From positions 3,720,001-3,784,000 of the forward strand of contig CDPCPM010000023.1 of assembly GCA_976551045.1 (NCBI GenBank): a stretch of 64,000 bases of DNA. The letters run 5' to 3'. This document shows, one piece after another, positions 1 through 48,500 of this stretch; position 1 is the stretch's first letter, and each line of letters starts with the position of its first letter. The translations under genes were made by a program, and so were the position numbers. The DNA comes from Glaucostegus cemiculus (Eukaryota). The notes beneath the pieces are model-generated. The model worked only from the letters and a program-made list of their open reading frames with translations. It ran no database searches and had not been told where the DNA came from.

Positions 1-266
1 TGGAAGAAGGACAATGAGAGCCACCAATTGGCACCCTGCTGTGTCCCTGTGACAATTATCAGGTCAGCACCACAACCCATTTCCAGCAAGAATTATGCTG
101 ACTGATGCTCCGCAGGCATCTATATCCACTGATTTGTTGACTCCATCACTGGCTAATGTATCTTCCCTGATACGATTGCACAAGAAGTTCGCGCTCCAGC
201 TTGACTCTTCTGCTTGCTCAAGGAGGGGCACCCAACAACACAAATTCCACGTGAAGCTACCCTTAC

Positions 267-524
267 CTGTAGTAGAAGAGACATTGACTGCATCAGCTGA
301 TGTATTATCTGCTGCCAGTGTGATTACGCTGAATGTGTATCCAGTTCCAGGATTCAGTTGCGTCACAGTAATCAATTCAGTAGCAGTCGTCATTATCGAA
401 CGATTTCCGCTCGGTACCACCTTATAGGTGTACTCAGGCTTGTGGTCGACTGGTCTGCCCCAGCTCAGAGTAACTGAAGTGGTGGTGCGATTTCTAACGG
501 TTACCGAATTCACAGGGTTTGGCT
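267..524 (-). CDS. FN3 exon type A (copy 1), 258 nt
   Basis: ttgcag|AG CCA AAC ... ACA G|gtaagg; PNPVNSVTVRNRTTTSVTLSW...LNPGTGYTFSV. Confidence 0.92.
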
Positions 525-3500
525 CTGCAATTATTAGTGAGATGTTGAGAATAACAGCAACTTCATACTGCCTCATGCTTCACTGCACCTGCTTAATAAC
601 GAAGACTGGTGCTGCAGCCATGCATGTCTTTGCCATTCCTTTCTATTTGCAACGCAGTGCCCGGCACGTTCCCGATCTGTCTGCATATCTGATGACACCT
701 TGCAGGCATTCAAAGAAAGAAGGCAACCACTGTCAAATAGCCTGTCACATTCCTTTTTGCCTGCTTTCCTGAGTGTCAATTAGTCATAATCCTCAAAAGG
801 TACTTGAGAACTCATGGCAATCGACGAGTTATCTGCTTGCTCTACTGGCTCTGATGTGACTGCAGTATCCACTCACCGCAGCAAGCAGAACGACCGAACA
901 ACCACATATGACTTTTCCAATAAATGATGTACGTTGCCACGATGTGATGCTTCAAAAGGACAACGTCTTTATTGCAAGGTTAGGTTCACTTCATACATTT
1001 CTGGGCACCAGCCATCAACAGCTGCTGCTAATTATTGCATCCATCCTACCAGAGAAATGCTCAACCTCTTCAAACACTCAAGACTTATCAATGTTAACCC
1101 ATGCTACCAAGCTGCAACACTCCTCCAACAATATGATTCCTACCAATACTACTCCATTTTGTTTACCAGTCCACACTTACTGGAAGCACATCCTCATGAC
1201 AAGGTGACAGAGAAGCAACTTGAATTGAGGCAGAGTAACCAGCTGCTCACTCATAAGAAAAGCTACAGCCCAATGAACACACTGCAGAACTCCTTCAGTC
1301 AAACCTCTGACGCTGCCTGAAGATGCTTTCCTAAATCCAATGACCACCTCTGGTGCAACATGGTCCTTCGGCATCTGCTGCCCGCCTGTGGGCCGCACCC
1401 CAGCTCACGAGAGAAATTACAATCCACTTACGTGTGAAGTGATTCAGAACCACAGCTTCACTCTTCACTCCACCGTGAACAATAGTAGTCACAGAGATGG
1501 TGTAATTGGTTCCAGATTGAAGGTTTCGGATGCTGATGGAATTTGACCTTTCATTCAAGGAGACGTCAGAACTGCTTGCAGTCCTGTACGTGATGCTGAA
1601 GTTGTACTGGGTGACCTCCATATCCACAGGTCTTCCTAAGCTCATGGAGATGGAACTGTTGCTTATAGCTGTCACAGTAATGCTCGCTGGCTTGGAAGGA
1701 ACTGTCAGAGGCAAGTAATTGGATAACGATGGTTGGTGAAACCACAAAAATAGACAGAGCAACTTAAACATCTGCACAAATTGCTCACTTCCATCAACAT
1801 CGCATACGTCAGCGGTGCGAGTTAGTGGAGGACCCCTTCAAGCTGAGTCGCCCCTTTCCAGGTGCAGAAAACAGGTGCAAAGTTTCACTCCTACACCTCC
1901 CAGGAGGAGATAATGTACAACCGTCAAAATCCTTGAAGGATATTCATGGAAGAAGGACAATGAGAGCCACCAATTGGCACCCTGCTGTGTCCCTGTGACA
2001 ATTATCAGGTCAGCACCACAACCCATTTCCAGCAAGAATTATGCTGACTGATGCTCCGCAGGCATCTATATCCACTGATTTGTTGACTCCATCACTGGCT
2101 AATGTATCTTCCCTGATACGATTGCGCAAGAAGTTTGCGCTCCAGCTTGACTCTTCTGCTTGCTCAAGGAGGGGCACCCAACAACACAAATTCCACGTGA
2201 AGCTACCCTTACCTGTAGTAGAAGAGACATTGACTGCATCAGCTGATGTATTATCTGCTGCCAGTGTGATTACGCTGAAAGTGTATCCAGTTCCAGGATT
2301 CAGTTGCGTCACAGTAATCAATTCAGTAGCAGTCGTCATTATCGAATGATTTCCGCTCGGTACCACCTTATAGGTGTACTCAGGCTTGTGGTCGACTGGT
2401 CTGCCCCAGCTCAGAGTAACTGAAGTGGTGGTGCGATTTCTAATGGTTACCGAATTCACAGGGTTTGGCTCTGCAATTATTAGTGAGATGTTGAGAATAA
2501 CAGCAACTTCATACTGCCTCATGCTTCACTGCACCTGCTTAATAACGAAGACTGGTGCTGCAGCCATGCATGTCTTTGCCATTCCTTTCTATTTGCAACG
2601 CAGTGCCCGGCACGTTCCCGATCTGTCTGCATATCTGATGACACCTTGCAGGCATTCAATGAAAGAAGGCAACCACTGTCAAATAGCCTGTCACATTCCT
2701 TTTTGCCTGCTTTCCTGAGTATCAATTAGTCATAATCCTCAAAAGCTACTTGAGAAGTCATGGTAATCGACGAGTTATCTGCTTGCTCTACTGGCTCTGA
2801 TGTGACTGCAGTATCCACTCACCGCAGCAAGCAGAACCACCGAACAACCACGTACGACTTTTCCAATAAATGACGTACGTTGCCACGATGTGATGCTTCA
2901 AAAGGACAACGCCTTTATTGTAAGGTTAGCTTCACATCTTACATTTCTGGGCAACAGCCAACAACAGCTGCTGCTAAATATTGCATCCATCTGACCCAGA
3001 GAAATACTCAACCTCTTCAAACACTCAAGACTTATCAATGTTAACCCATGCTACCAAGCTGCAACTCTCCTCCAACAATATGATTCCTGCCAATTATTAC
3101 TCCATTTTGATTACCAGACCACACATACTGCAAGCACATCATCCTGCCAGGGTGACAGAGAAGCAACTTGAATTGAAGCAGAGGAACCAGCTGCTCACTC
3201 ATAAGAAAAGCTACAGTCCAATAAACACCCTGCAGAACTCCTTCAGGCAAATGTCTGACGCTGCCTGAAAATGCTTTCCTAAATCCAATGACCACCCAGG
3301 GTGCAACATGGTCCTTCGTCATGTGCTGCCCGCCTGAGGGCTGCACCCCAGCTCACGAGGGAAGCTACAATCCACTTACGTGTAAAGTGATTCAGAACCA
3401 CAGCTCCACTCTTCACTCCACCGTGAACAATAGTAGTCACAGAGATGGTGTAATTGGTTCCAGATTGAAGGTTTCGGATGCTGATGGAATTTGACCTTTC

Positions 3501-6500
3501 ATTCAAGGAGACGTCAGAACTGCTTGCAGTCCTGTACGTGATGCTGAAGTTGTACTGGGTGACCTCCATGTCCACAGGTCTTCCTAAGCTCATGGAGATG
3601 GAACTGTTGCTTATAGCTGTCACAGTAATGCTCGCTGGCTTGGAAGGAACTGTCAGAGGCAAGTAATTGGATAACGATAGTTGGTGAAACCACAAAAATA
3701 GACAGAGCAACTTAAAGATCTGCACAAATTGCTCATTTCCATCAACATCGCATACGTCAGCCGTGCGAGTTAGTGGAGGACCCCTTCAAGCTGAGTTGCC
3801 CCTTTCCAGGTGCAGAAAACAGGTGCAAAGTTTCACTCCTACACCTCCCAGGAGGAGATAATGTACAACCGTCAAAATCCTTGAAGGATATTCATGGAAG
3901 AAGGACAATGAGAGCCACCAATTGGCACCCTGCTGTGTCCCTGTGACAATTATCAGGTCAGCACCACAACCCATTTCCAGCAAGAATTATGCTGACTGAT
4001 GCTCCGCAGGCATCTATATCCACTGATTTGTTGACTCCATCACTGGCTAATGTATCTTCCCTGATACGATTGCACAAGAAGTTCGCGCTCCAGCTTGACT
4101 CTTCTGCTTGCTCAAGGAGGGGCACCCAACAACACAAATTCCACGTGAAGCTACCCTTACCTGTAGTAGAAGAGACATTGACTGCATCAGCTGATGTATT
4201 ATCTGCTGCCAGTGTGATTACGCTGAATGTGTATCCAGTTCCAGGATTCAGTTGCGTCACAGTAATCAATTCAGTAGCAGTCGTCATTATCGAACGATTT
4301 CCGCTCGGTACCACCTTATAGGTGTACTCAGGCTTGTGGTCGACTGGTCTGCCCCAGCTCAGAGTAACTGAAGTGGTGGTGCGATTTCTAACGGTTACCG
4401 AATTCACAGGGTTTGGCTCTGCAATTATTAGTGAGATGTTGAGAATAACAGCAACTTCATACTGCCTCATGCTTCACTGCACCTGCTTAATAACGAAGAC
4501 TGGTGCTGCAGCCATGCATGTCTTTGCCATTCCTTTCTATTTGCAACGCAGTGCCCGGCACGTTCCCGATCTGTCTGCATATCTGATGACACCTTGCAGG
4601 CATTCAAAGAAAGAAGGCAACCACTGTCAAATAGCCTGTCACATTCCTTTTTGCCTGCTTTCCTGAGTGTCAATTAGTCATAATCCTCAAAAGGTACTTG
4701 AGAACTCATGGCAATCGACGAGTTATCTGCTTGCTCTACTGGCTCTGATGTGACTGCAGTATCCACTCACCGCAGCAAGCAGAACGACCGAACAACCACA
4801 TATGACTTTTCCAATAAATGATGTACGTTGCCACGATGTGATGCTTCAAAAGGACAACGTCTTTATTGCAAGGTTAGGTTCACTTCATACATTTCTGGGC
4901 ACCAGCCATCAACAGCTGCTGCTAATTATTGCATCCATCCTACCAGAGAAATGCTCAACCTCTTCAAACACTCAAGACTTATCAATGTTAACCCATGCTA
5001 CCAAGCTGCAACACTCCTCCAACAATATGATTCCTACCAATACTACTCCATTTTGTTTACCAGTCCACACTTACTGGAAGCACATCCTCATGACAAGGTG
5101 ACAGAGAAGCAACTTGAATTGAGGCAGAGGAACCAGCTGCTCACTCATAAGAAAAGCTACAGCCCAATGAACACACTGCAGAACTCCTTCAGTCAAACCT
5201 CTGACGCTGCCTGAAGATGCTTTCCTAAATCCAATGACCACCTCTGGTGCAACATGGTCCTTCGGCATCTGCTGCCCGCCTGTGGGCCGCACCCCAGCTC
5301 ACGAGAGAAATTACAATCCACTTACGTGTGAAGTGATTCAGAACCACAGCTTCACTCTTCACTCCACCGTGAACAATAGTAGTCACAGAGATGGTGTAAT
5401 TGGTTCCAGATTGAAGGTTTCGGATGCTGATGGAATTTGACCTTTCATTCAAGGAGACGTCAGAACTGCTTGCAGTCCTGTACGTGATGCTGAAGTTGTA
5501 CTGGGTGACCTCCATATCCACAGGTCTTCCTAAGCTCATGGAGATGGAACTGTTGCTTATAGCTGTCACAGTAATGCTCGCTGGCTTGGAAGGAACTGTC
5601 AGAGGCAAGTAATTGGATAACGATGGTTGGTGAAACCACAAAAATAGACAGAGCAACTTAAACATCTGCACAAATTGCTCACTTCCATCAACATCGCATA
5701 CGTCAGCCGTGCGAGTTAGTGGAGGACCCCTTCAAGCTGAGTCGCCCCTTTCCAGGTGCAGAAAACAGGTGCAAAGTTTCACTCCTACACCTCCCAGGAG
5801 GAGATAATGTACAACCGTCAAAATCCTTGAAGGATATTCATGGAAGAAGGACAATGAGAGCCACCAATTGGCACCCTGCTGTGTCCCTGTGACAATTATC
5901 AGGTCAGCACCACAACCCATTTCCAGCAAGAATTATGCTGACTGATGCTCCGCAGGCATCTATATCCACTGATTTGTTGACTCCATCACTGGCTAATGTA
6001 TCTTCCCTGATACGATTGCGCAAGAAGTTCGCGCTCCAGCTTGACTCTTCTGCTTGCTCAAGGAGGGGCACCCAACAACACAAATTCCATTTCAAGCCAG
6101 CCTTACCTGTAGTAGAAGAGACATTGACTGCATCAGCTGATGTATTATCTGCTGCCAGTGTGATTACGCTGAATGTGTATCCAGTTCCAGGATTCAGTTG
6201 CGTCACAGTAATCAATTCAGTAGCAGTCGTCATTATCGAACGATTTCCGCTCGGTACCACCTTATAGGTGTACTCAGGCTTGTGGTCGACTGGTCTGCCC
6301 CAGCTCAGAGTAACTGAAGTGGTGGTGCGATTTCTAACGGTTACCGAATTCACAGGGTTTGGCTCTGCAATTATTAGTGAGATGTTGAGAATAACAGCAA
6401 CTTCATACTGCCTCATGCTTCACTGCACCTGCTTAATAACGAAGACTGGTGCTGCAGCCATGCATGTCTTTGCCATTCCTTTCTATTTGCAACGCAGTGC

Positions 6501-9500
6501 CCGGCACGTTCCCGATCTGTCTGCATATCTGATGACACCTTGCAGGCATTCAATGAAACAAGGCAACCACTGTCAAATAGCCTGTCACATTCCTTTTTGC
6601 CTGCTTTCCTGAGTGTCAATTAGTCATAATCCTCAAAAGGTACTTGAGAACTCATGGCAATCGACGAGTTATCTGCTTGCTCTACTGGCTCTGATGTGAC
6701 TGCAGTATCCACTCACCGCAGCAAGCAGAACGACCGAACAACCACATATGACTTTTCCAATAAATGATGTACGTTGCCACGATGTGATGCTTCAAAAGGA
6801 CAACGTTTTTATTGCAAGGTTAGGTTCACTTCATACATTTCTGGGCACCAGCCATCAACAGCTGCTGCTAATTATTGCATCCATCCTACCAGAGAAATGC
6901 TCAACCTCTTCAAACACTCAAGACTTATCAATGTTAACCCATGCTACCAAGCTGCAACACTCCTCCAACAATATGATTCCTACCAATACTACTCCATTTT
7001 GTTTACCAGTCCACACTTACTGGAAGCACATCCTCCTGCCAGGGTGACAGAGAAGCAACTTGAATTGAGGCGGAGGAACCAGCTGCTCACTCATAAGAAA
7101 AGCTACAGCCCAATGAACACACTGCAGAACTCCTTCAGTCAAACCTCTGACGCTGCCTGAAGATGCTTTCCTAAATCCAATGACCACCTCTGGTGCAACA
7201 TGGTCCTTCGGTATCTGCTGCCCGCCTGTGGGCTGCACCCCAGCTCACGAGAGAAATTACAATCCACTTACGTGTGAAGTGATTCAGAACCACAGCTTCA
7301 CTCTTCACTCCACCGTGAACAATAGTAGTCACAGAGATGGTGTAATTGGTTCCAGATTGAAGGTTTCGGATGCTGATGGAATTTGACCTTTCATTCAAGG
7401 AGACGTCAGAACTGCTTGCAGTCCTGTACGTGATGCTGAAGTTGTACTGGGTGACCTCCATATCCACAGGTCTTCCTAAGCTCATGGAGATGGAACTGTT
7501 GCTTATAGCTGTCACAGTAATGCTCGCTGGCTTGGAAGGAACTGTCAGAGGCAAGTAATTGGATAACGATAGTTGGTGAAACCACAAAAATAGACAGAGC
7601 AACTTAAAGATCTGCACAAATTGCTCACTTCCATCAACATCGCATACGTCAGCCGTGCGAGTTAGTGGAGGACCCCTTCAAGCTGAGTTGCCCCTTTCCA
7701 GGTGCAGAAAACAGGTGCAAAGTTTCACTCCTACACCTCCCAGGAGGAGATAATGTACAACCGTCAAAATCCTTGAAGGATATTCATGGAAGAAGGACAA
7801 TGAGAGCCACCAATTGGCACCCTGCTGTGTCCCTGTGACAATTATCAGGTCAGCACCACAACCCATTTCCAGCAAGAATTATGCTGACTGATGCTCCGCA
7901 GGCATCTATATTCACTGATTTGTTGACTCCATCACTGGCTAATGTATCTTCCCTGATACGATTGCACAAGAAGTTCGCGCTCCAGCTTGACTCTTCTGCT
8001 TGCTCAAGGAGGGGCACCCAACAACACAAATTCCACGTGAAGCTACCCTTACCTGTAGTAGAAGAGACATTGACTGCATCAGCTGATGTATTATCTGCTG
8101 CCAGTGTGATTACGCTGAATGTGTATCCAGTTCCAGGATTCAGTTGCGTCACAGTAATCAATTCAGTAGCAGTCGTCATTATCGAATGATTTCCGCTCGG
8201 TACCACCTTATAGATGTACTCAGGCTTGTGGTCGACTGGTCTGCCCCAGCTCAGAGTAACTGAAGTGGTGGTGCGATTTCTAACGGTTACCGAATTCACA
8301 GGGTTTGGCTCTGCAATAATTAGTGAGATGTTGAGAATAACAGCAACTTCATACTGCCTCATGCTTCACTGCACCTGCTTAATAACGAAGACTGGTGCTG
8401 CAGCAATGCACGTCTTTGCCATTCCTTTCTATTTGCAACGCAGTGCCCGGCACGTTCCCGATCTGTCTGCATATCTGATGACACCCTGCAGGCATTCAAT
8501 GAAAGAAGGCAACCACTGTCAAATAGCCTGTCACTTTCCTTTTTGCCTGCTTTCCTGAGTGTCAATTAGTCATAATCCTCAAAAGGTAATTGAGAACTCA
8601 TGGCAATCGACGAGTTATCTGCTTGCTCTACTGGCTCTGCTGTGACTACAGTATCCACTCACCGCAGCAAGCAGAACGACCGAACAACCACATATGACTT
8701 TTCCAATAAATGATGTACGTTGCCACGATGTGATGCTTCAAAAGGACAACGTTTTTATTGCAAGGTTAGGTTCACTTCATACATTTCTGGGCACCAGCCA
8801 TCAACAGCTGCTGCTAATTATTGCATCCATCCTACCAGAGAAATGCTCAACCTCTTCAAACACTCAAGACTTATCAATGTTAACCCATGCTACCAAGCTG
8901 CAACACTCCTCCAACAATATGATTCCTACCAATACTACTCCATTTTGTTTACCAGTCCACACTTACTGGAAGCACATCCTCATGACAGGGTGACAGAGAA
9001 GCAACTTGAATTGAGGCAGAGGAACCAGCTGCTCACTCATAAGAAAAGCTACAGCCCAATGAACACACTGCAGAACTCCTTCAGTCAAACCTCTGACGCT
9101 GCCTGAAGATGCTTTCCTAAATCCAATGACCACCTCTGGTGCAACATGGTCCTTCGGCATCTGCTGCCCGCCTGTGGGCCGCACCCCAGCTCACGAGAGA
9201 AATTACAATCCACTTACGTGTGAAGTGATTCAGAACCACAGCTTCACTCTTCACTCCACCTTGAACAATAGTAGTCACAGAGATGGTGTAATTGGTTCCA
9301 GATTGAAGGTTTCGGATGCTGATGGAATTTGACCTTTCATTCAAGGAGACGTCAGAACTGCTTGCAGTCCTGTACGTGATGCTGAAGTTGTACTGGGTGA
9401 CCTCCATATCCACAGGTCTTCCTAAGCTCATGGAGATGGAACTGTTGCTTATAGCTGTCACAGTAATGCTCGCTGGCTTGGAAGGAACTGTCAGAGGCAA

Positions 9501-12500
9501 GTAATTGGATAACGATGGTTGGTGAAACCACAAAAATAGACAGAGCAACTTAAACATCTGCACAAATTGCTCACTTCCATCAACATCGCATACGTCAGCG
9601 GTGCGAGTTAGTGGAGGACCCCTTCAAGCTGAGTCGCCCCTTTCCAGGTGCAGAAAACAGGTGCAAAGTTTCACTCCTACACCTCCCAGGAGGAGATAAT
9701 GTACAACCGTCAAAATCCTTGAAGGATATTCATGGAAGAAGGACAATGAGAGCCACCAATTGGCACCCTGCTGTGTCCCTGTGACAATTATCAGGTCAGC
9801 ACCACAACCCATTTCCAGCAAGAATTATGCTGACTGATGCTCCGCAGGCATCTATATCCACTGATTTGTTGACTCCATCACTGGCTAATGTATCTTCCCT
9901 GATACGATTGCGCAAGAAGTTCGCGCTCCAGCTTGACTCTTCTGCTTGCTCAAGGAGGGGCACCCAACAACACAAATTCCATTTCAAGCCAGCCTTACCT
10001 GTAGTAGAAGAGACATTGACTGCATCAGCTGATGTATTATCTGCTGCCAGTGTGATTACGCTGAATGTGTATCCAGTTCCAGGATTCAGTTGCGTCACAG
10101 TAATCAATTCAGTAGCAGTCGTCATTATCGAACGATTTCCGCTCGGTACCACCTTATAGGTGTAATCAGGCTTGTGGTCGACTGGTCTGCCCCAGCTCAG
10201 AGTAACTGAAGTGGTGGTGCGATTTCTAACGGTTACCGAATTCACAGGGTTTGGCTCTGCAATTATTAGTGAGATGTTGAGAATAACAGCAACTTCATAC
10301 TGCCTCATGCTTCACTGCACCTGCTTAATAACGAAGACTGGTGCTGCAGCCATGCATGTCTTTGCCATTCCTTTCTATTTGCAACGCAGTGCCCGGCACG
10401 TTCCCGATCTGTCTGCATATCTGATGACACCTTGCAGGCATTCAATGAAACAAGGCAACCACTGTCAAATAGCCTGTCACATTCCTTTTTGCCTGCTTTC
10501 CTGAGTGTCAATTAGTCATAATCCTCAAAAGGTACTTGAGAACTCATGGCAATCGACGAGTTATCTGCTTGCTCTACTGGCTCTGATGTGACTGCAGTAT
10601 CCACTCACCGCAGCAAGCAGAACGACCGAACAACCACATATGACTTTTCCAATAAATGATGTACGTTGCCACGATGTGATGCTTCAAAAGGACAACGTTT
10701 TTATTGCAAGGTTAGGTTCACTTCATACATTTCTGGGCACCAGCCATCAACAGCTGCTGCTAATTATTGCATCCATCCTACCAGAGAAATGCTCAACCTC
10801 TTCAAACACTCAAGACTTATCAATGTTAACCCATGCTACCAAGCTGCAACACTCCTCCAACAATATGATTCCTACCAATACTACTCCATTTTGTTTACCA
10901 GTCCACACTTACTGGAAGCACATCCTCCTGCCAGGGTGACAGAGAAGCAACTTGAATTGAGGCGGAGGAACCAGCTGCTCACTCATAAGAAAAGCTACAG
11001 CCCAATGAACACACTGCAGAACTCCTTCAGTCAAACCTCTGACGCTGCCTGAAGATGCTTTCCTAAATCCAATGACCACCTCTGGTGCAACATGGTCCTT
11101 CGGTATCTGCTGCCCGCCTGTGGGCTGCACCCCAGCTCACGAGAGAAATTACAATCCACTTACGTGTGAAGTGATTCAGAACCACAGCTTCACTCTTCAC
11201 TCCACCGTGAACAATAGTAGTCACAGAGATGGTGTAATTGGTTCCAGATTGAAGGTTTCGGATGCTGATGGAATTTGACCTTTCATTCAAGGAGACGTCA
11301 GAACTGCTTGCAGTCCTGTACGTGATGCTGAAGTTGTACTGGGTGACCTCCATATCCACAGGTCTTCCTAAGCTCATGGAGATGGAACTGTTGCTTATAG
11401 CTGTCACAGTAATGCTCGCTGGCTTGGAAGGAACTGTCAGAGGCAAGTAATTGGATAACGATAGTTGGTGAAACCACAAAAATAGACAGAGCAACTTAAA
11501 GATCTGCACAAATTGCTCACTTCCATCAACATCGCATACGTCAGCCGTGCGAGTTAGTGGAGGACCCCTTCAAGCTGAGTTGCCCCTTTCCAGGTGCAGA
11601 AAACAGGTGCAAAGTTTCACTCCTACACCTCCCAGGAGGAGATAATGTACAACCGTCAAAATCCTTGAAGGATATTCATGGAAGAAGGACAATGAGAGCC
11701 ACCAATTGGCACCCTGCTGTGTCCCTGTGACAATTATCAGGTCAGCACCACAACCCATTTCCAGCAAGAATTATGCTGACTGATGCTCCGCAGGCATCTA
11801 TATCCACTGATTTGTTGACTCCATCACTGGCTAATGTATCTTCCCTGATACGATTGCGCAAGAAGTTTGCGCTCCAGCTTGACCCTTCTGCTTGCTCAAG
11901 GAGGGGCACCCAACAACACAAATTCCACGTGAAGCTACCCTTACCTGTAGTAGAAGAGACATTGACTGCATCAGCTGATGTATTATCTGCTGCCAGTGTG
12001 ATTACGCTGAATGTGTATCCAGTTCCAGGATTCAGTTGCGTCACAGTAATCAATTCAGTAGCAGTCGTCATTATCGAATGATTTCCGCTCGGTACCACCT
12101 TATAGGTGTACTCAGGCTTGTGGTCGACTGGTCTGCCCCAGCTCAGAGTAACTGAAGTGGTGGTGCGATTTCTAACGGTTACCGAATTCACAGGGTTTGG
12201 CTCTGCAATTATTAGTGAGATGTTGAGAATAACAGCAACTTCATACTGCTTCATGCTTCACTGCACCTGCTTAATAACGAAGACTGGTGCTGCAGCCATG
12301 CATGTCTTTGCCATTCCTTTCTATTTGTAACGCAGTGCCCGGCACGTTCCCGATCTGTCTGCATATCTGATGACACCTTGCAGGCATTCAATGAAACAAG
12401 GCAACCACTGTCAAATAGCCTGTCACATTCCTTTTTGCCTGCTTTCCTGAGTATCAATTAGTCATAATCCTCAAAAGCTACTTGAGAAGTCATGGTAATC

Positions 12501-33500: not shown

Positions 33501-36500
33501 AGAGATTTCCGCTCGGTACCACCTTATAGGTGTACTCAGGCTTGTGGTCGACTGGTCTGCCCCAGCTCAGAGTAACTGAAGTGGTGGTGCGATTTCTAAC
33601 GGTTACCGAATTCACAGGGTTTGGCTCTGCAATTATTAGTGAGATGTTGAGAATAACAGCAGCCTCATACTGCCTCATGCTTCACTGCACCTGCTTAATA
33701 ACGAAGACTGGTGTGCCAGCCATGCATGTCATTGCCATTCCTTTCTATTTGCAACGCAGTGCCCGGCACCTTCCCGATCTGTCTGTACATCTGATGCCAC
33801 CTTGCACGCATTCAATGAAACAAGGCAACCACTGTCAAATAGCCTGTCACATTCCTTTTTGCCTGCTTTCCTAAGTATCAATTCGTCATAATCCTGAAAA
33901 GGTACTTGAGAATTCATGGCAATCGACGAGTTATCTGCTTGCTCTACTGGCTCTGACGTGACTGCAGTATCCACTCACCGCAGCAAGCAGAACCACCGAA
34001 CAACCACGTACAACTTTTCCAATAAATGACGTACGTTGCCACGATGTGATGCTTCAAAAGGACAACTTCTTTATTGCAAGGTTAGCTTCACTTCTTACAT
34101 TTCTGGGCACCAGCCATCAACAGCTTCTGCTAATTATTGCATCCATCTGTCCCAGAGAAATACTCAACCTCTTCATACACTCAAGACTTATCAATGTTAA
34201 CCCATGCTACCAAGCTGCAACTCTCCTCCAACAATATGATTCCTGCCAATTATTACTCCATTTTGATTACCAGTCCACACCTACTGCAAACACATCCTCC
34301 TGCCAGCGTGACAGAGAAGCAACTTGAATTGAGGCAGAGGAACCAGCTGCTCACTCATAAGAAAAGCTACAGCCCAATGAACACCCTGCAGAACTCCTTC
34401 AGCCAAACGTCTGACGCTGCCTGAAAATGCTTTCCTAAATCCAATGACCACCCAGGGTGCAACATGGTCCTTCGTCATCTGCTGCTCGCCTGTGGGCTGC
34501 ACCCCAGCTCACGAGGGAAATTACAATCGACTTACGTGTAAAGTGATTCAGAACCACAGCTTCACTGTTCACTCCACCGTGAATGATAGTAGTCACAGAG
34601 ATGGTGTAATTGGTTCCAGATTGAAGGTTTCGGATGCTGATGGAATTTGACCTTTCATTCAAGGAGACGTCAGAACTGCTTGCAGTCCTGTACGTGATGC
34701 TGAAGTTGTACTGGGTGACCTCCATGTCCACAGGTCTTCCTAAGCTCAAGGAGATGGAACTGTTGCTTATAGCTGTCACAATAATGCTCGCTGGCTTGGA
34801 AGGAACTGTTCAAGGCAATAATTGGATAATGATGGTGAAAATAACAATAGGTCAATCAACTTAAACTTCTACACAAATCACCCACTTCAATCAACATTAA
34901 TTCTGTTGGTCATGAATGTTGCAGCAATACGTGTTCAAGGTTTGTCCGCTGTTTGCTATTCGGAATGTTAACTGTGACATTAACTCCCACAGCTCTCAGT
35001 TTAAATCATATGCAGGCTGCACATCCTCCATCTCGATGCAGGGTTGGCAAGCAAGGGACAAACAGGACCTCAGATTGGCATCCTCCAGCATTCGCATTAC
35101 AACTGTCAGATGGCACATTAGTGCTCTATAAAGAATTAAGCTCACTGAGTCCATAGTTCACATTGTAACTACATACCCATTATCCAGAGATGGACAAAAT
35201 AAAAAAGAAATGACATTGGACCCGTTGCACAATGAAACGTAAACGTGAAGCAGCAACATTTTGTTCTCAGTGCCAAACCACAAATTTTATCACCATGCAT
35301 GAATTTTCAACATGAACTATTTCATTATTTTCTTAGTCAGGATCATCTAAGAAGGGACTTACTCCAGCTTAACCCATCTGGCTTGGTCAGGGAGGAACTC
35401 CAATTAAAGCAATTCCATATTAACCTTTCCTTACCTGTAGTCAAAGAGACAGTAACGGGATCTGCAGATGTGTTATCTGCCGCCATTGTAAACACACTAA
35501 AGACGTATCTTGTTCCTGGATTCAGTTGAGTCACAGTAATTAACTCATTACCAATCACAGTTGTTGAGAGATTTCCATTCACTGCCACCTTATAGGTATA
35601 CTCCGGCTTGTGGTTGAATGGTTGGTCCCAGCTCAGAGTAACTGAAGTCGTGGTGCGATTCAAAACGGTTACATTGTTCACAGGGTTTGGTTCTGCAATG
35701 ATTAATGACATGTTGAGAATAACATCAACTCATGTTGTCTCCACTTGATCTTTGACAACTGATGCTGGATATATCCATGACACTGCAATCCTTTTCTGTT
35801 GGTTAGGCAGTGCACAGTAGACTGTTGAACTGTGGATATTTAGTGTTGCCTTCAAGAGATCCAATAAAACAAGACAACCACTTTCAAACATCCTCTCAAT
35901 TTCTCCTCTGCTTCATCTCCTCAGGACCAATTAATCATAATCCTCTAAGGCACTTGACAAGCCAAGCCTGTCAACAGGTTCCAGAAGGGAAAAATCATCA
36001 TAATAACTGGAACCATTAAACAGTCAGGGGAGCTGCAATCACTTGTCTTTACAATAATTAATGCTAATTTCTATGACAAACTAAATCTCCAGTATTGGAA
36101 AAGCATTACCTCCTGCATGACTGGACACTGTCACTATTAACAAGCAGGGAACTAAGTTTATGCAGAGTTCTTGGCAATCTTTAATCTGGCAGTGGACTCC
36201 TTCTGAACCAAACCTTTTCCATTACTGACATTCCGTCTCCTTTCACGATCTGGCTACGCAATCTTAAATTCAGATTTAAAGGTGCTTTTTGACAAACCTG
36301 CATTCATGAAGGAAGCTTCCCTTCCTTTCAGCCATCAAACAAGATCAGGCATATCTTCATAAGCAGCTTGAGACAAGTTTTACCAACACTTCTACCTTTC
36401 AGTGCAATATATGGTGTGCAGCTGATGTGTCAAATAACGCCACTGAGTACATTCCTAATTTCAGTGCCTCACAACTGAGTGTTTGAGAGGTCAGATTGAC

Positions 36501-39500
36501 AGAGGATAATATTGCACACAAAGGAACTAATGCCTTGGTTCATGATGTGCAGGTGAAACCAGACATAGAGTCAGAAACATGGCTTTGTTCACTCTTGTGC
36601 CTCAGCATCAACATCTCATCGGCTAGGAGTGATAGGCACTAACTGCTCACCTAGCCAGCAATACATAGAGAAAGGTCAATGATAAATGCAAACAACAGGG
36701 GAGGATGAGAATAGTTGTTGCATCCCTCTGTCCCATGTGCTTAAGCCATGCCATCTGTCATGTGAAACCTGAGTCTTGAAAATTGCATTGATGACCTGAA
36801 GAAAAATATCTGCTAACAGAAGTTGTTTGTGCATTAGGTGCCAACAAGTGGTTACCTGTACAAGAAGCAGCTTCCAGCTTTCCATCTCCACACAACTATA
36901 GTCATCAGAAGCCTTTTGACTACAAGATACATTTGCCTTCTTCTCCAAACGGTAGAAGGAGTCAGGCTCGTGATGGGAAAGTGTGTTCCAGATGAGTTTT
37001 AATGACATGTTGTTACGAAACTTATATTTCACCAAGAGGACACTGTTTTGGCTTGCAAACATTGATGAGATGCTCCTGATTGGATCCATCTTAACCAGAG
37101 TAATGCTCAACAACATCATATCATGCAAAACTGATCAATACTAATACAAGCTACGCTGCTGTAACTCTCCACCAAAAATGTGACTCCTGGCAATTATTCC
37201 ATCGTGTAGATCCACCAGAACCACTTCAAATATTACAAGCACTACTCCAGTGCCAAGCTGAGAGAGCAACTATTATAACTCAGGCAGAGAAGCCAGCTGC
37301 ACATAAATAAGAAAAGCTGCAGCAAACTGAAGATTCTGCAGAACACCTGCAACCAAATATCTGACACTGCCTCCCAAATCCAATGATCACCAGCGGAAAC
37401 ATATTCCTTGCCTACTTGCTTTGTGCCTCCAACTCAGGAGGAAAATTTCATCCCACTTATACGGAAACTGATTTAGAACCACAGCGTAACACCTCAGTGA
37501 ACAGCTCATGTATTTAAGCCATGCCATCTCACATGTGAAACCTGAGCCTTTAAAACTGTATTCCCTCTTCGAGAGCTGTTTGTATTTCATGTGCCAAGAA
37601 GTAGAGACGGTTAATGAGAAGCAGGCTTCTACATTCTCTCTCCTCACAAGTGCAGTTATTACAACTTCTTTTATCCGAAGATGGACTTGCCCTCATCTCC
37701 ATGCTGCAGCGAATGTCAGGCTCATGATTAGGAAGACTGCCCCAGACCAGATTTAATGGCATCCTGATATGTGCCTCTAACTTCAATGAAGTGTCATGAT
37801 TCAATTTGTAATTGTGGATAATGTTAATAATTGGAATAAACTCATTCAGAGCAATACTCAACAAGCTCCACGTCAAAAGGTGATTCAATCCTAACACAAA
37901 CTAGACTGCAACATTCCATTCCAACAACGTTAAACTCCCTAGCAAGAACGTAACCGCAGCCAATTATTCTGCTGCATTTGCCACAAGAAGGCCAGTCTTA
38001 AGATACGAGAAATGTTTCTCTAGTGTCAAGGTTAAAGAGCACGAATTCTAACTGATTAATCATTCATCAGAAAAGCTGTAACCATCTCAGGTCTCTGCAG
38101 AACACCTTCAACCAAATATCTTGCACCATCTCCAAAATACAATCTTAAATCCAATGACGTCACAACCTGGAAGATTGTCCTTTCTTACTTGCTTCTTGCA
38201 TTCGGGCTGCAACACAGTCTACGAGGGAAATTTCACGCCACGTATGTGTAAACTGACTTCGAACCACAGCTTCACTCTTCACTCCACCGTGAACAATAGT
38301 AGTCACAAATATGGTGTAATTGGTTCCAGATTGCAGACCTTGGATCGTGGTGGAATTTGAACTTTCAATCAAGGAAACAACAGAACGGTTGGCAGTCCTG
38401 TATGTGATGTTGAAATTATACTGGTTGACCTCCATGTCCACAGGTCTTCCTAAGCTGAGGGAGATGGAACTGTTGCTTAAGGCCATCACATTGATGGCTC
38501 CTGGCTTGGAAGGAACTATCAGAGTCAAATACATGGATATTGATTGTTGGACAAAGAACAAAAACAGATACAGCAAATTAAGCATCTATGCAAATTGACA
38601 ACTCCAATCAGGAATACATATGTTCATCATCAACATTGCAGTAAAACCCTTTCAAGACTTAGCCACTATTTCCAAAATCAAAGGCCATCTGTGACATTCA
38701 CTGAAACAGCTCTCAGCATATGATCACGTACAGCACGCAACATTCTCCATCCATACACAGGGTTATCACAACCAAGGGAAACTGAGGGAACCATTAATTG
38801 GTGCCATAACAACTGTCAGGTCAGCACATTACAGCTCTATCAAGTTTTATGCTTCCTGATTCCATAATTCACATTGCAAAAATATCCCCATTACACTGAG
38901 ACAGATGAAAAGAATGAAAAAGGTACAACATGGGACCTTTCCACCTCATTACATCACTGGGATGTGATAACATTCTCTTTGCAAAGGTAGGAGACCATTT
39001 TCATCACGATGCATGGATTTTCAACTTGACCTTTTCATTATGTGTATAGTCTATTCTGACCTAGGATCAACTAAAGAGGGTCTCACTCCAGCTTAACCCA
39101 TCTGGCTTGGTCAGGGAGGAACTCCAATTAAAGCAATTCCATATTAACCTTTCCTTACCTGTAGTCAAAGAGACAGTAACGGGACCTGCAGATGTGTTAT
39201 CTGCCGCCATTGTAACACACACTAAAGACGTATCTTGTTCCTGGATTCTTTTCTGTTGGCTGGACATCCCACTTATACGGAAACTGATTTAGACCTACAG
39301 CATAACATCTCAATCTTAACATTAATCTCATACTGCCTGATGCGTCTCTGCACTTAATGATCCGTGTTAACTGGTTCTGCAGCCATCTATATCATACCAA
39401 TTACTTTCTATTTGCAAGGCATTGCCTAGTACATCCTTAAACTACATGCATATTTGATGCAATGTTCGCGAGATCTAATAAACATGGCAGCTAAATTCAT

Positions 39501-42500
39501 TCAGTCCCTTTTGCCTTCTTTCCTCACCACTATTTTATCATTATCCAAGCCACTCGACAAACAACATGTTTGGTTGGTGAACATCTTCTAGAAAGGCAAA
39601 TCATGGCAGTAGCCTGAAGCACTAAAAAGCCAACAAAGCTGTGACTTTCCATTAATTGATGCACATTTACGAGACACAGTGTTTGCAAACAACAAGATCT
39701 TAAATATAGAGCAAGCATAACCTCCTGCATATCCATCACATCCTGGTTGGGCCCAGCCCAGAGTAATTGAACTTGTGGCTGAATTTCTAATGTTTACCTT
39801 GTTCACAGGGTTTGGTTCTGCTATTATTAACGAGATGTTGAGAATAACATCAATCTCATAATGCCTGATACTTCTCTGCACTTAAAGATCTCTGATAATT
39901 GACAGTGTATCTATCCATGTCATTCCAATCTCTTTCCATTGTTAAGTAGTGTCCAGTTCATCTTTAACCTCGGTGCATTTTTAATGCCCCCTTCAACAGA
40001 CGAAATAAAACATAGCAAGCACATTCAATCATTCCCTCAACTTCCCCTTTTGTTATTTCCTCAGTATTTAACCATAATCACCAAAAATACTTGACAACCA
40101 TTGCCAGTCCACAAGATGTCTGGTTTGTCAACTAACTCTGACAGTTCCAGAAAGACAAATCACAGCAGTAATATGAACCCCTAAGCAAGCAGCAGAGCTG
40201 TGATCACCTATGACATTCCAATAACTGATGCACATCTTCAGAGCATGGTGCTTACAAACAAGATCTTCAATGTTGGGCAAGCATTACCTCATGATGTCTG
40301 AGCATGATTACCATCAACAACCAGGGAACCAAGCGTATGCAGAGTTCACAAAAATCTTCCAAGTCCTTATTTTTCAGTAAACCTCTTCTGAAACAATACA
40401 TTTGCCAACACCCATCTGCCATGGGAATATATAGCTACACAATCTTGAATTGAGTTTCAGAAGTCCTTTTTGACAAACACACATTCTTGAAGGGAAGGTT
40501 CCTTCTTTTCAACTACCTAGCCAATTCAGATATAGCCTCACAAGAAATATGAGTCAAGATTTACCAGTAATTCCCTTCTGTACTAGAAGACATGGTGAGT
40601 TTTGAATTTGTTAACCATCGCTGACGAGCAAGAGTCAGAATTTTAGGAGGCAAGTTTGAAAGGGGATAATATTCCATGAAAAGAACCAATGCTGGAGTTT
40701 GCAATGTGCAAATAATGTAGTCGGCAATAAAGCTTTGTAACACCTTAATCAGGAAACCTGATGCCCAACAACACTGTTTGAGCTGTTTCACCAGATAAAC
40801 AAAAGGTGGTGGATAAGCAACATCTTAAAAGGGAAACAGGGATGGGGAGTAAATATTTAGCATTTCTCACATCTTGAAAAGTGAATAACCAATTCAAGTA
40901 GGTGAGGATGAGAATAACTTTTCCACATCTTTGTCCCATCTACTTAAGCCAAGCCAGTACTCATTCAAAACCTGAGTCTATAGAACTATATCCATTCTCT
41001 GAAGAGAAAGATGTATTCGAGTCCTGTTTGTGTTTTGTATGTCAACAAGTGGATACAGTAACTATATGCAGGCTCGATCATCACATCTCCTCACAACTAC
41101 AGTCATTAGGAACCTTTTGATTTAGAATTGAACTTGCCCTCTCCTCCAAGCTTTCGCTACTATCAGGACTGTTATCAGCAAATCTGTTCTGGATGAGATT
41201 TAATGACCCAGTGCTCTGGGTATTCAGCCTCACTCAGATGACATTGTTCTGATTTGCAAGCATCAATGAGATGTTGATAATTGGGAGTTCAAGTATTAGA
41301 AACATCTCACTACTACCAAGATGCAAGGACTACAATTCTCAAGCACATAAACCAGCAGCCCATTTATAACAAAAGCTGCAACTAACTAAGCTCTCTGCAG
41401 AACACTCTCAAGGCTTGTAGTTGACTGATTTGTTTCAGCTCAGAGTCACTGAAGTGGTGTTGCAGGTTTAAAGGGTTATGTTTCTCACAGGATTTGGTTC
41501 TGCAGTTATTAATGAGATGTTGAGAACACATCAATCTCATACCTCCTCAGGCTCCACTGCTCTTTATGATGTGTGACATCTGATGCTGCATTGATTCATG
41601 CCATTCCAATTTCTTTTCACTGGCAATCTAGTGCCCATTGCAACAATCAATTTGTTAACATAATTGTTGATTATTTTTTTCCCCTCAAGGGATCCTTGCA
41701 ACTATTCCCTGAACTTCAATTTTGCACATTTTCCTCAAGAATTAATTCATTATCTTGGGTACTCTACTAGCCAAAGATGAACAAGCTGCCTTCTTGGCCA
41801 ACTGACTTCTTTAGGTTTTCAATTTGTCAAAGGACATGAGCATTTGAATAATCAAACATTTAATTGCTTTTTGATCATCTATCACTTTTCCATAATTCAT
41901 CTACATTTTAAATCTTAGCAGCTTTGGTTGTTAGGTTTGTAAATAAGCCTGAAACTTCTACCTTGTACTGTGAAGCAAGCACTGATCAAGTAAAGAAATA
42001 TTACGAGGTTGGTGGAAATCAGAAGTTAAGCATTACTACAATAATTGCTAAACACTCCACAGAAACGGGTAACCAACCATGTACAGATTCCGCGACAGAC
42101 TTTTGAGCCCCCATTTGGCAGTTGACTGGCATGTTTATAAAGATCTTAGTGAAGCCATCACCCTTCTCTGTGCTGCCAAAAGTGTTTAAATTTCTGTGTT
42201 CCCTCTATTTGGAATGTTTAGTTACTTTGTTAGAGAATGAAGCACATTTACAGCTGAAGTAATCTTCCATGAATGGATGTTTCCTTCCTTTGTATCATCT
42301 AAAAATATTAAAAAGAACCTCAAAGCAAGCTTGAGGTTAGATTTACTAGCACTTACCCATTGTAAATACAATAATGATATGTTGATGTTCTGTTACTTGA
42401 GTGACACTTAGAGCACGTAAACAAGCTTGACTCCTCTCACCTTTAATATTCCAGACACTAATGTGCTCAGTATTTCTAAACTGCATTGTTCATCAATAAA

Positions 42501-45500: not shown

Positions 45501-48500
45501 CAGAAATCATTTTAAACAGAGAGCAAAGAACTATTTCCCACTTCACCTCCATCTTACATGTAAGGAAACTTTTGTTTTCTTCAAGCCTCCTTTTCATTAT
45601 CCCACTCTGGCACCTTGAATTCTCATTTACGTACCTTACTTCAGACACAAAATGCAGCACAAGTGATTCCCTGCTTGAATGCACTGATGCAATGTGAAAT
45701 TATACATCAGGCATATGCTAATAAGTTTACATGAAAAATGAGATGTTATTTACCTACTGCAAATCACTGAGGCCTTGATGCAAATTACACCTTCAGCCCA
45801 ATGAAAACTCTCAACTGCTGTTTACAGTACTTACTTGTAAAGATATTTTTAATCACAGGATCACTTCTTGTATCATTAGCATTAACAGTCACTACCATGA
45901 CTGTGTAATTGGTTCCAGGAAATAGGTTGGTTAGCATTGTGGAGTTTTTTACTTCTGTCTTGGAATGTGTTTCACCAGTATGAATGTAAGTAATGTTGAA
46001 ATTGTATTCCGAGTTGTTCATGTCTGCAGGCCAGCCCCAACTCAGTGAGATGGAATTATTGGTAACGTTCAGCACCACAATATCTCCAGGCTTGGGAACA
46101 ACTGTGTGAAACAAAACAGTGGATATTATACAATAATTGAAAGCATAGCATGTAAGTGAATGCTTCAAACCCGCTTCATTCATAAAGATGCAATATTGCA
46201 AAATGTCCACATCCCACTGTTCATCTTACCAGCACATAAATTCCAAAACAAACATGACAGGCAAAACAGAAGATTCTTTTTTTAAAAACTGAAAGCATGC
46301 TCAAGTCGTTACTGTAATTATAAAGTCAACATCATATGCAATGGTGTAAACACTGCTTACTTTAGGTGACTGACTGATAATTCAGTTTATTGATCAACTG
46401 CTTCCTTCAATCTACGTTTTATCTCAAAATCCCATGAGTCAACAAAGAGTCATGAGTGTATAATGCCAAACAATATTCCAACATTTCCCTCAAAGATGAT
46501 GAGGCTGAACAATTCATTGAGTTCACAACCCACAAGATCATATCACCATCAAGAAGTCAGCCAAGCATCCAAATGAGTGCCACTGCAACAGCTCCGTCGT
46601 GTTGCCTAAACCAATATATCAACTGATGAACTAATATTATAAGAGCAAATGCTGAAATTTCACAACATTTTATTCAAAGTCTGTACTCAACATGATTCTG
46701 TCAACTACATACTTCCAAATAGTTTCATTTTTACCAAATCATTTATCTTCTTATATTTCTTTTCCTACCCCAATTTAATTTGCCTTTACACGATCTCATC
46801 TCTCTCATGGGGGCCTTTTCATGACCATGCAAATGGACAGATGGAACCAGGATGGGAGGAGTGGATAAGGTGAACTAAGTGTGTGGAGCCTTCTGTCTTC
46901 ATCAAAATAGAACACTTTTGTTACCTCAGTTTCCATTGTTATGGGTCCTGTGAGTCTTATATTTAAAATACAACTATTCATATCCTACTGGGCAGGACAT
47001 CATTCAGTTTCTGTTCATTTCATTCTCCTTCACAAATCACCTTATGTATAATTCCCCTTTGTATAATTTTTGCAATCCTTTCTACATTTTTTACTCCCAC
47101 ATCATCTTATCTTCCAGCTACAATGTTCTTTGCAATTCCACTGCATTTCACTAAACTCTGACAAGCAACCGACTTCCTGATTCAAAGCTTTCCCATTCCC
47201 TGTAAGGCAGTATTCAAAAGGGATGGAACACTCTCAATTCTTGGATAAATACAGCTCCAACATTTTATTAAACATTCATGCTGTTTAATAAAATCCAGAA
47301 TCAGGGGTCCACTTAAGTGCTGGGACAGCATAGTTCTGGCATCTGCTAGATGCCCTGCTGCAAAGAGCCTAAGCTGCTTCAACAGCAACCTCCACCACCA
47401 AAAAGGTCAAGGGGAAAGGCAGGAACACAGAGGGCCGCTAACTTAAATGTTTCCCTCAAGGTCACATGTCATTCGATTTTTAAAATATATAATTTTTTCT
47501 TTATCTTTGCTGGATCAAAATTCTGAACTCGAGCGATTCAAGGCAGCTAATCACCACTTTCCAGGGTAATTAAGTACGAGTTGAATTAAATAAAAGAAAT
47601 ATGGAAGAATGAAAAGAGAAAAGGAAATAGAAGAACATGGAAGGATGTAACCCTCTACCTTTATTTCATTGTGTCTACATTTTCAACCATAGAACCATAG
47701 AACAATACAGCACAAAACAGGCCCTTCGGCCCACCAAGTTGTGCCGCCCTTCAAACGTCACACAATCTAACTCTTTCCTCCCACATATCCCACTATTCCA
47801 CGTTCTTCCATGTGCCTACCTAACAATCTCTTGAACCTGTCCAACGTATCTGCCTCCACCACCACCCCAGGCAGCGCATTCCATGCGCCAACCGCTCTCT
47901 GGGTGAAAAACTTCCCTCTGACATCTCCCCTGAACTTTCCACCCAATATCTTAAAGCCATGCCCTCTCGCCTTGCGCATCTGTGCTCTGGGAAAGAGGCA
48001 CTGGCTGTCAACTCTATCTATTCTTCTCAATATCTTATACACCTCTATCAAGTCCCCTCTCATCCTCCTCCTCTCCAACGAGTAAAGCCCTAGCACCTTA
48101 AGCCTCTCCTCATATTCCATACCCTCTAATCCAGGCATCATCCTGGTAAATCACCTCTGTATCCTCTCCAATGCCTCCACATCCTTCCTATAATGCGGCG
48201 ACCAGAACTGAACACAATACTCTAAGTGTGGCCTAACTAGAGTTTTGTAAAGCAGCATCATCACCTCTCTGCTCTTGAACTCAATCCCACGATTTATAAA
48301 AGCTAACATCCCATAAGCCTTCTTAACTGCCCTATCCACCTGCGAGGCAACTTTGAGTGAACTGTGGATATGAACCCCCAGATCCCTCTGCTCCTCTACA
48401 CTGCCAAATACCTTGCCATTTACCTTGTACTCTGCCCTGGAGTTTGTCCTACCAAAGTGCACCACCTCACACTTCTCCAGATTAAAACTCCATCTGCCAC

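Follow-up and report, generated by a model that had tools for sequence, protein, structure and literature searches.

Coding cassettes of several kilobases, arranged in tandem, kept in frame, homogenised and setting the length of the protein, are known from kringle IV-2 of LPA, from the triplicate regions of nebulin and titin, and from the variable-number tandem repeats (VNTRs) of the mucins. In mammalian PTPRJ (CD148, DEP-1), the FN3 domains of the ectodomain are mutually diverged. The R3 receptor protein tyrosine phosphatases (PTPs), the group of PTPRJ, are described as having an ectodomain of FN3 repeats only and as varying in the number of these repeats (PMC5336234), with 8–18 of them in the human members (PMC10815196). 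This report concerns a PTPRJ/CD148-type gene of Glaucostegus cemiculus that carries a large array of near-identical FN3 exons. The stretch analysed, referred to as the window, comprises 64,000 nucleotides of contig CDPCPM010000023.1 (C23:3720001-3784000) from the 2.85-Gb genome; coordinates without a prefix are window positions, and with 200 kb added on each side the region came to 464 kb in all, with 0 N gaps. We give a probability of about 55% to the reading that this PTPRJ-type gene, its two-exon cassette amplified 29.5-fold, would encode a 6,921-aa receptor whose 72-domain ectodomain likely acts as a length-tunable steric spacer. That a real, amplified PTPRJ array is present is held with high confidence.

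The predicted product resembles mammalian PTPRJ in its signal peptide, its FN3-only ectodomain with one exon per FN3 and phase-1 introns, its larger juxtamembrane domain (intron phases 1:1:2:1), its transmembrane (TM) segment, its single PTP domain with WPD and HCSAGVGR motifs, and its C-terminal YxN. It departs from the human protein, for which 8–9 FN3 domains are given (PMC10815196), in having 72 of them, and from the mammalian proteins in that 59 of the 72 are near-identical copies of one pair. Like the LPA, nebulin/titin and mucin arrays it consists of tandem in-frame coding units, but here these lie within a signalling receptor with a catalytic tail. The gene is a striking new variant of a known receptor and part of a wider unreported pattern. 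In-frame amplification of exon cassettes with concerted evolution is a known process, and concerted evolution of domain repeats is described as rare in metazoans (PMC5100051). A literature search, with most subscription journals outside its reach, yielded no report of a PTPRJ ectodomain that is giant or amplified from within.

By k-mer self-comparison, a period of 1,946–1,948 bp runs across window positions 1-34,900, with unique sequence beyond; Tandem Repeats Finder did not detect the array because of its period limit of 500. The 18 copies in the window are 93.8–100% identical to unit 1-1948, with which the rightmost copy aligns over 1.8 kb only, yet with both exons present. On the minus strand they contain 18 B exons (270 nt) and 18 A exons (258 nt), giving 176 aa per pair, and all 36 are open, with an AG acceptor, a GT donor and phase 1. 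The original prediction, made from the letters of the window, of 18 near-identical 1.95-kb units with two in-frame FN3 exons each is thereby confirmed, and the two further intact FN3 exons that it named were found at 35692-35435 (A') and 46101-45835 (B0). It had put the coding sequence at about 10 kb and more than 3300 aa; the 38 exons amount to 10,029 nt and 3,343 aa. The array features of the window are:

267..34805, minus strand: in-window array of 18 units, each made of a B exon, a 907–909 nt intron, an A exon and a 510–511 nt intron
34805-34536, 32857-32588, 30910-30641, 28962-28693, 27014-26745, 25067-24798, minus strand: B-type FN3 exons 1–6, 270 nt
23121-22852, 21173-20904, 19225-18956, 17277-17008, 15329-15060, 13381-13112, minus strand: B-type FN3 exons 7–12, 270 nt
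11433-11164, 9487-9218, 7541-7272, 5595-5326, 3649-3380, 1701-1432, minus strand: B-type FN3 exons 13–18, 270 nt
33626-33369, 31678-31421, 29731-29474, 27783-27526, 25836-25579, 23890-23633, minus strand: A-type FN3 exons 1–6, 258 nt
21942-21685, 19994-19737, 18046-17789, 16098-15841, 14150-13893, 12202-11945, minus strand: A-type FN3 exons 7–12, 258 nt
10256-9999, 8310-8053, 6364-6107, 4418-4161, 2470-2213, 524-267, minus strand: A-type FN3 exons 13–18, 258 nt

As had been foreseen, the array runs past the left edge, where 12 further B and 11 further A exons lie. The entire array occupies C23:3754805-3694130 (60,676 bp) and holds 30 B and 29 A exons, all of them open with AG/GT, and one larger intron of 3.9 kb. 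The donors read GTAAGG in 29/29 and GTAAGT in 30/30 cases, and the AG acceptor is present in every copy. Pfam fn3 matched all five exons scanned (E 1e-9 to 3e-14) and the B domain resembles the FN3 repeats of fibronectin (E 9e-8), the fold and domain geometry resting on these Pfam and sequence matches. Three N-glycan sequons were counted in the B copy checked and four in the A copy checked.

Three further features of the cassette were also noticed. The strand-B Trp of the A and B0 exons is replaced in B by Leu (Phe in 2/30); the same Leu occurs in the B domains of skate, Narcine and Heterodontus, so the substitution is old and has since been amplified up to 30 times. Codon 41 is the most variable codon of the A exon (His, Arg, Leu) and, since it is the middle position of an N-x-S sequon, the sequon is retained. 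Finally, the intron of the last full unit contains, in that unit only, a 3.6-kb insert resembling a long interspersed nuclear element (LINE-like; RVT_1; ~C23:3695596-3699178), bounded by a direct 360-bp duplication of the intron sequence.

The outer exons of the gene were found by searching with shark and ray homologues (12 matches, of which 9 covered the cassette at 48–78% identity, 8 of these being named elasmobranch PTP eta or H-like). The left-hand DNA, where the remainder of the array and the TM and PTP exons were to be looked for, contains all of them, the TM and single PTP exons lying ~76–100 kb left of the window. Amplification of a two-exon cassette within one gene is thus borne out on a larger scale than had been claimed, with 72 FN3 domains and not 38. 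From the first exon to the last, the parts of the model other than the array are:

C23:3817954-3817895, minus strand, outside the window: exon 1, signal peptide, 60 nt, 80% identical to the Narcine N-terminus (E 2e-9)
53593..53611, minus strand: exon 2, 19 nt, best of all AG..GT candidates between exon 1 and B0, with a strong pyrimidine tract and a GTAAGT donor
45835..46101, minus strand: B0, first FN3 exon, 267 nt, single copy, matching the N-terminal FN3 of shark and ray orthologues
35435..35692, minus strand: A', second FN3 of the model, an older intact A-type exon with 73% amino-acid identity to array A and 87% to the sawfish record
1..266, minus strand: intron leaving the window, with further exons to the left
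C23:3688676-3658372, minus strand: 11 unique FN3 exons, by homologue search
Left of the unique FN3 exons, minus strand: 3 juxtamembrane exons, by homologue search
C23:3643952-3643865, minus strand: TM exon, hydrophobic and then basic residues
Ending with the stop at ~C23:3620264, minus strand: 10 cytoplasmic exons with one PTP domain, by homologue search

The model has 88 exons, with 87/87 AG acceptors, 87/87 GT donors, a coding sequence of 20,766 nt and a single terminal stop. The predicted protein of 6,921 aa (745 kDa) has an ectodomain of 6,554 aa with 265 N-glycan sequons and 29% Ser+Thr, which from its sequence is likely to be heavily N-glycosylated. Its 72 FN3 domains were counted with a profile built from orthologues, Pfam having been run on five exons. 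Exon 1 is hydrophobic and matches the N-termini of orthologues; signal peptide and TM were called by homology and inspection. Every exon of the array and ectodomain is of phase 1-1, so any skip stays in frame. A cluster of separate genes was considered and rejected, given one signal exon and one TM/PTP set in 464 kb. The next-best genomic match to a PTP exon is at most 59% identical (21 matches from 43 candidates), so the gene is single-copy at that level. Alternative exon choice as in Dscam was likewise rejected on account of the 92–99% identity of the copies and their strict B-A alternation.

The sequence identifies the gene as a PTPRJ/CD148-type R3 receptor PTP. The claim of an R3 receptor PTP, raised from the window alone, has been sustained by the TM and single PTP exons and narrowed to the PTPRJ type by scores and tree: ectodomain of FN3 only, signal peptide, single TM helix and one cytoplasmic PTP domain are all in the model. 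Tyrosine-specific R3 members are described as differing from PTPRQ in the WPD Asp, the catalytic Cys and Arg and the C-terminal YxN (PMC5336234), and the predicted tail has KNRY, WPDHG, HCSAGVGRTG and two YEN motifs, with HCSAGVGR occurring once before the stop. Pfam Y_phosphatase matched both PTP exons scanned, and judging by these motifs the PTP domain is catalytically intact. The juxtamembrane intron phases of the model, 1:1:2:1, are reported to mark the large juxtamembrane domain of the R3 members J, B and Q, not of H and O (PMC5336234); Pfam PTP_tm matched the sawfish orthologue (E 1e-20) and gave no match to the single juxtamembrane exon of this gene scanned alone. In its cytoplasmic part the gene shares 96% identity with the record of the sawfish (Pristis) and 89% with those of skates. 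A tree of 29 PTP domains, none of them a mammalian PTPRJ or PTPRH, puts the gene beside Pristis (97), within the batoids and an elasmobranch 'eta' clade (100), which joins sturgeon, cichlid and climbing-perch proteins (96) and stands apart from the teleost PTPRH-like, PTPRQ and R2A rows. Against solved structures, the stingray orthologue P0069 scored 396 bits with human PTPRJ, 319 with PTPRB, 290 with PTPRH, 264 with PTPRO and 237 with PTPRQ, two-domain PTPs scoring above PTPRJ only through the summing of two stretches; two exons of the gene itself also ranked PTPRJ first among R3 members, one of them narrowly over PTPRB. NUP160 is the neighbour of PTPRJ in mammals. It was the one neighbour looked at and lies here on contig C387, separate from C23, the contigs being unscaffolded.

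An array of this kind might have been inflated during assembly, and the reading that few real copies were largely over-expanded has to be faced. Units 25–27 are identical, several unit pairs differ by 1–3 bases, and no reads of this individual were shown to span the array; yet of 28 clean units 26 can be told apart, 168 variable columns are each common to at least two units, and the 464 kb have no N gap. Further evidence comes from DNA sequencing runs, four of five having been compared as contigs over window 32990-46300, among them X4 and X5 from related species. In X5, unit contigs had a depth of 73.7–76.4 against 5.6–6.6 for three flank contigs, and in X4 of 16.3–18.9 against flanks of 2.6–4.3, so that units are ~4–14x deeper than flanks in two relatives. 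In X1 and X3 the single-copy flanks were almost without cover and no depth ratio was drawn, X2 being from the same sample as X1. Head-to-tail joints were also seen: one 1,905-nt contig of X1 is a circularly permuted unit, and a contig of X5 leads from 34808 back to 33105 through 243 intervening letters, a span of one period. These runs support multi-copy head-to-tail arrays in the relatives, not the exact figure of 29.5. The same cassette is also amplified in an independent skate assembly. Over-expansion is unlikely as the main cause, and an array that is largely artefact is hardly credible.

The array is a concertedly evolving domain array with a recombination signal. Across the 28 units, segregating sites are fewer in exons (45/528) than in introns (219/1,421; Fisher P 5e-5), and pairwise diversity is 1.3–1.6% against 2.7–3.7%. 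Distinct coding variants comprise 32 nonsynonymous and 20 synonymous (ratio of nonsynonymous to synonymous change, dN/dS, 0.52; P 0.018), and no lesion (stop, splice dinucleotide or frameshift) was seen in array exons where ~5.2 would be expected at the intron mutation density (P ~0.006). Block duplications are indicated by near-identical groups of units: units 12, 13 and 14 differ from 20, 21 and 22 by 1, 3 and 6 bases, and units 7–8 resemble 9–10. The share of site pairs failing the four-gamete test (161 sites) rises from 12.8% at less than 250 bp to 37.4% at 1,500 bp or more, as expected from exchange. Divergence is greatest in the units at the edges, and the final A and B exons have their nearest counterparts at the other end of the array, so a newer variant has likely swept its centre. 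B copies are 92–99% identical within this genome and 93–99% within skate but 72–80% between the two; since the copies cluster by species, they have been homogenised or amplified separately. One Pristis B copy was seen to adjoin the B clade of this genome. Amplification to 29.5 intact copies is likely to have come about by unequal crossing-over with concerted evolution.

Whether these exons all reach the protein bears directly on its size. The array could be real and the giant form rare, with mRNAs skipping most cassettes or including a variable number of them. The phase 1-1 exons would tolerate this, identical splice sites every 1.95 kb could compete, entire FN3 domains distinguish isoforms of orthologues (Narcine X1 vs X2, Stegostoma X1–X3), and many cichlid isoforms span 3,232–3,323 aa. 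We regard it as rather unlikely, since every copy has a strong consensus donor and an AG acceptor, coding change is depleted across copies, and the copies that lie outside the array have decayed. Because selection acts across the copies and the splice sites are intact, it is somewhat more probable than the contrary that most copies are spliced in. Among the joints listed from the contigs of four runs, which include intron sequence, none was a splice joint.

Cassette amplification is not unique to this gene: skate has amplified the same cassette, and most sharks and rays, together with some bony fish, have amplified other ones. The relatives' records are automatic predictions. That of the thorny skate Amblyraja radiata (XP_032894451, 'uncharacterized', 5,775 aa) has 52 FN3 domains, 38 of them of the same B-A cassette, followed by TM and PTP; it is without a signal peptide and shows apparent intron read-through. 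Together with the elasmobranch 'PTP eta' records it represents the same gene, differing in that the copies cluster by species; domains of the B-A cassette number 10 in Narcine, 5 in Heterodontus and 6 in Pristis. Among the other elasmobranch orthologue models, 17 in number, 15 contain FN3 domains with a partner in the same protein that is at least 85% identical, and two are without near-identical repeats. The B-A pair is repeated in four of the 17 and the A type alone in two; the cassettes repeated in manta, white and basking sharks, as in some others, are membrane-proximal. FN3 counts among the 17 range from 8 to 52 (sawfish 18, another skate 17), and the present gene is the longest of the 18 compared.

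A protein search at 3,221–5,000 aa returned 36 matches, of which 10 were examined (records among P0021–P0043). Two cichlid 'titin' (Maylandia) and two Anabas 'PTP beta-like' records of 3,200–3,500 aa have 31–33 FN3 domains, 20–23 of them near-identical, and one PTP domain; the cichlid 'titin' record is of PTPRJ type (463 bits against 304 for PTPRH), in agreement with the tree. They thus resemble the present gene, at about half its size, but use other cassettes: none of their FN3 domains reaches 50% identity to those of this gene, which points to separate amplifications. Frog giants, with 43 FN3 in Pelobates and 56 in Lithobates, many near-identical, were rejected as PTPRJ, no PTP motif being present in the records. 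Database names for the giant FN3 arrays of frogs, cichlid and Anabas are 'titin', 'uncharacterized' or 'PTP beta-like'. None of three PTPRQ records examined (Geotrypetes and Danio among them) has near-identical repeats.

This distribution bears on two further explanations. Copy number might be a neutral by-product of unequal crossing-over, with selection purging broken or misfolding copies and length left untuned. Lineages amplifying different cassettes to very different extents, with two of 17 models lacking near-identical repeats, would fit this, and the maintenance of frame and fold alone would give the purifying signal; yet the amplification recurs in one gene across sharks, rays and bony fish, with PTPRQ at 0/3, and a 745-kDa polypeptide is likely to be costly. 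We consider neutrality quite improbable. Alternatively, the repeats might form a multivalent binding surface, for a host ligand, for homophilic contact or as a decoy for pathogen adhesins, with homogenisation spreading a binding variant. Thrombospondin-1 and syndecan-2 are described as ligands of the CD148 ectodomain (PMC10815196), concerted domain repeats as enriched in host-pathogen functions (PMC5100051), and it is a fixed B-A pair, not a single domain, that four of the 17 other species amplify. Diversifying selection was not seen: dN/dS is below 1, and when compared with skate the repeated domains (78% for B, 71% for A) prove better conserved than the unique membrane-proximal FN3s (63%). 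In other lineages it is other domains that are amplified. On the strength of this purifying selection and higher conservation of the repeats, a binding or decoy role is less favoured and very improbable.

The preferred reading, that of a giant and length-tunable spacer, may be pictured as follows. With phase-1 symmetric exons, any whole number of cassettes could be gained or lost in frame; unequal crossing-over would raise or lower their number, broken copies being purged by selection, and the block duplications and mosaic haplotypes would be the record of such exchanges. At 3.5 nm per FN3 domain, the contour length would be ~250–270 nm, several times that of mammalian CD148, with a lower effective height if the chain is flexible. 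An alternative basis for this length is the 15 nm per four domains given for CD45 (PMC6170634). By analogy with mammalian CD148, the enzyme would be excluded by its bulk from sites where a cell closely touches another cell or a particle, and the places at which tyrosine-kinase signalling can start would thus depend on ectodomain length; greater length and a dense coat of glycans would likely hold the phosphatase at a greater distance from such contacts and make it contribute to the glycocalyx. Exclusion from the immune synapse is reported to be mediated by the ectodomain of mammalian CD148 (PMC2173795), which is also described as predicted to be near-linear, with a similar role at the phagocytic synapse (PMC10815196). 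Provided that most copies are spliced in, the balance would tilt in favour of a spacer role.

Several points weigh against this reading. Factors beyond the ectodomain are reported to contribute to CD148 exclusion (PMC2173795). Size exclusion may saturate well below ~250 nm and be near complete at 20–50 nm: CD45 isoforms of 22–40 nm are reported to be already excluded from contacts of 13–15 nm, and effective height to fall below ectodomain length (PMC6170634). The identity of units 25–27 leaves the unit count uncertain by a few, and the depth of a contig is not a copy number, the runs moreover coming from relatives and not from this individual. The 12-nt cytoplasmic micro-exon of the model is the best candidate and a poor match to homologues. 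The variant counts take each common variant once and are not independent events, and the selection signal is modest; part of it could be a legacy of the ancestral cassette, or could have been spread by homogenisation starting from a small number of copies in use. The very uneven FN3 counts among relatives fit drift as well as tuning, or collapsed assemblies.

A broader proposition is put forward tentatively, as one that we doubt more than we believe: non-mammalian PTPRJ/CD148 would be an evolutionary accordion, one lineage after another amplifying an FN3 cassette of its own under concerted evolution, in batoids up to a fully spliced receptor of ~250 nm and 745 kDa in which allelic length tunes contact signalling thresholds, and the giants hidden as 'titin' or 'uncharacterized' would offer a natural length series for kinetic segregation. 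One assembly of this species was examined, and allelic length polymorphism is the defining trait of a VNTR. The sites at which CD148 and CD45 can act are believed to depend on the size of their ectodomains, so that a 72-domain orthologue, with 8–52 domains in other sharks and rays and 31–33 in some bony fish, would be a natural experiment on whether length matters and to what extent. It would also probe how a cell splices, folds and glycosylates the product of a ~21-kb coding sequence of near-identical exons, and it draws attention to a class of loci that have been mis-annotated or collapsed. Were most exons skipped, a clean vertebrate protein-coding array under concerted evolution would still be at hand, much less surprising.

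The right part of the window holds, besides A' and B0, remains of older copies:

38246..38515, minus strand: B', an older B-type exon with an open frame and AT, not GT, at the canonical donor, the sequence seen directly
39150..39817, minus strand: decayed A-type exon, its 5' end at 39817 (~24 codons, then unrelated sequence), its 3' end and donor at 39256-39159
41411..41499, minus strand: start of a decayed A-type exon with in-frame stops

The earlier statement that no copy has a broken GT/AG holds for the 38 exons counted and fails for these decayed copies in the 35–42 kb part, one of which has the AT donor. B' has an in-frame GT 12 nt before the canonical donor and would thus be skipped or included 4 residues short; it was omitted from the gene model. 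The A'/B' block (window 35413-39121) forms one 3.7-kb contig in run X5, at ~2x flank depth and with a go-back joint, and the sawfish record repeats an A'-B' pair; A'/B' is an older cassette, duplicated in relatives and half decayed here. Near-identity is also seen between two membrane-proximal FN3 exons (C23:3687860-3687591 and 3678457-3678188); they represent an older triplet duplication, of a kind that Mobula and skate have amplified further. Among the introns, LINE-like high-copy fragments with very high run depth lie at window ~42560-44300 and 48636-49625 (RVT_1 for the second), and open reading frames resembling a long terminal repeat retrotransposon, judged from translation, lie between two unique FN3 exons at C23 ~3665500-3669200.

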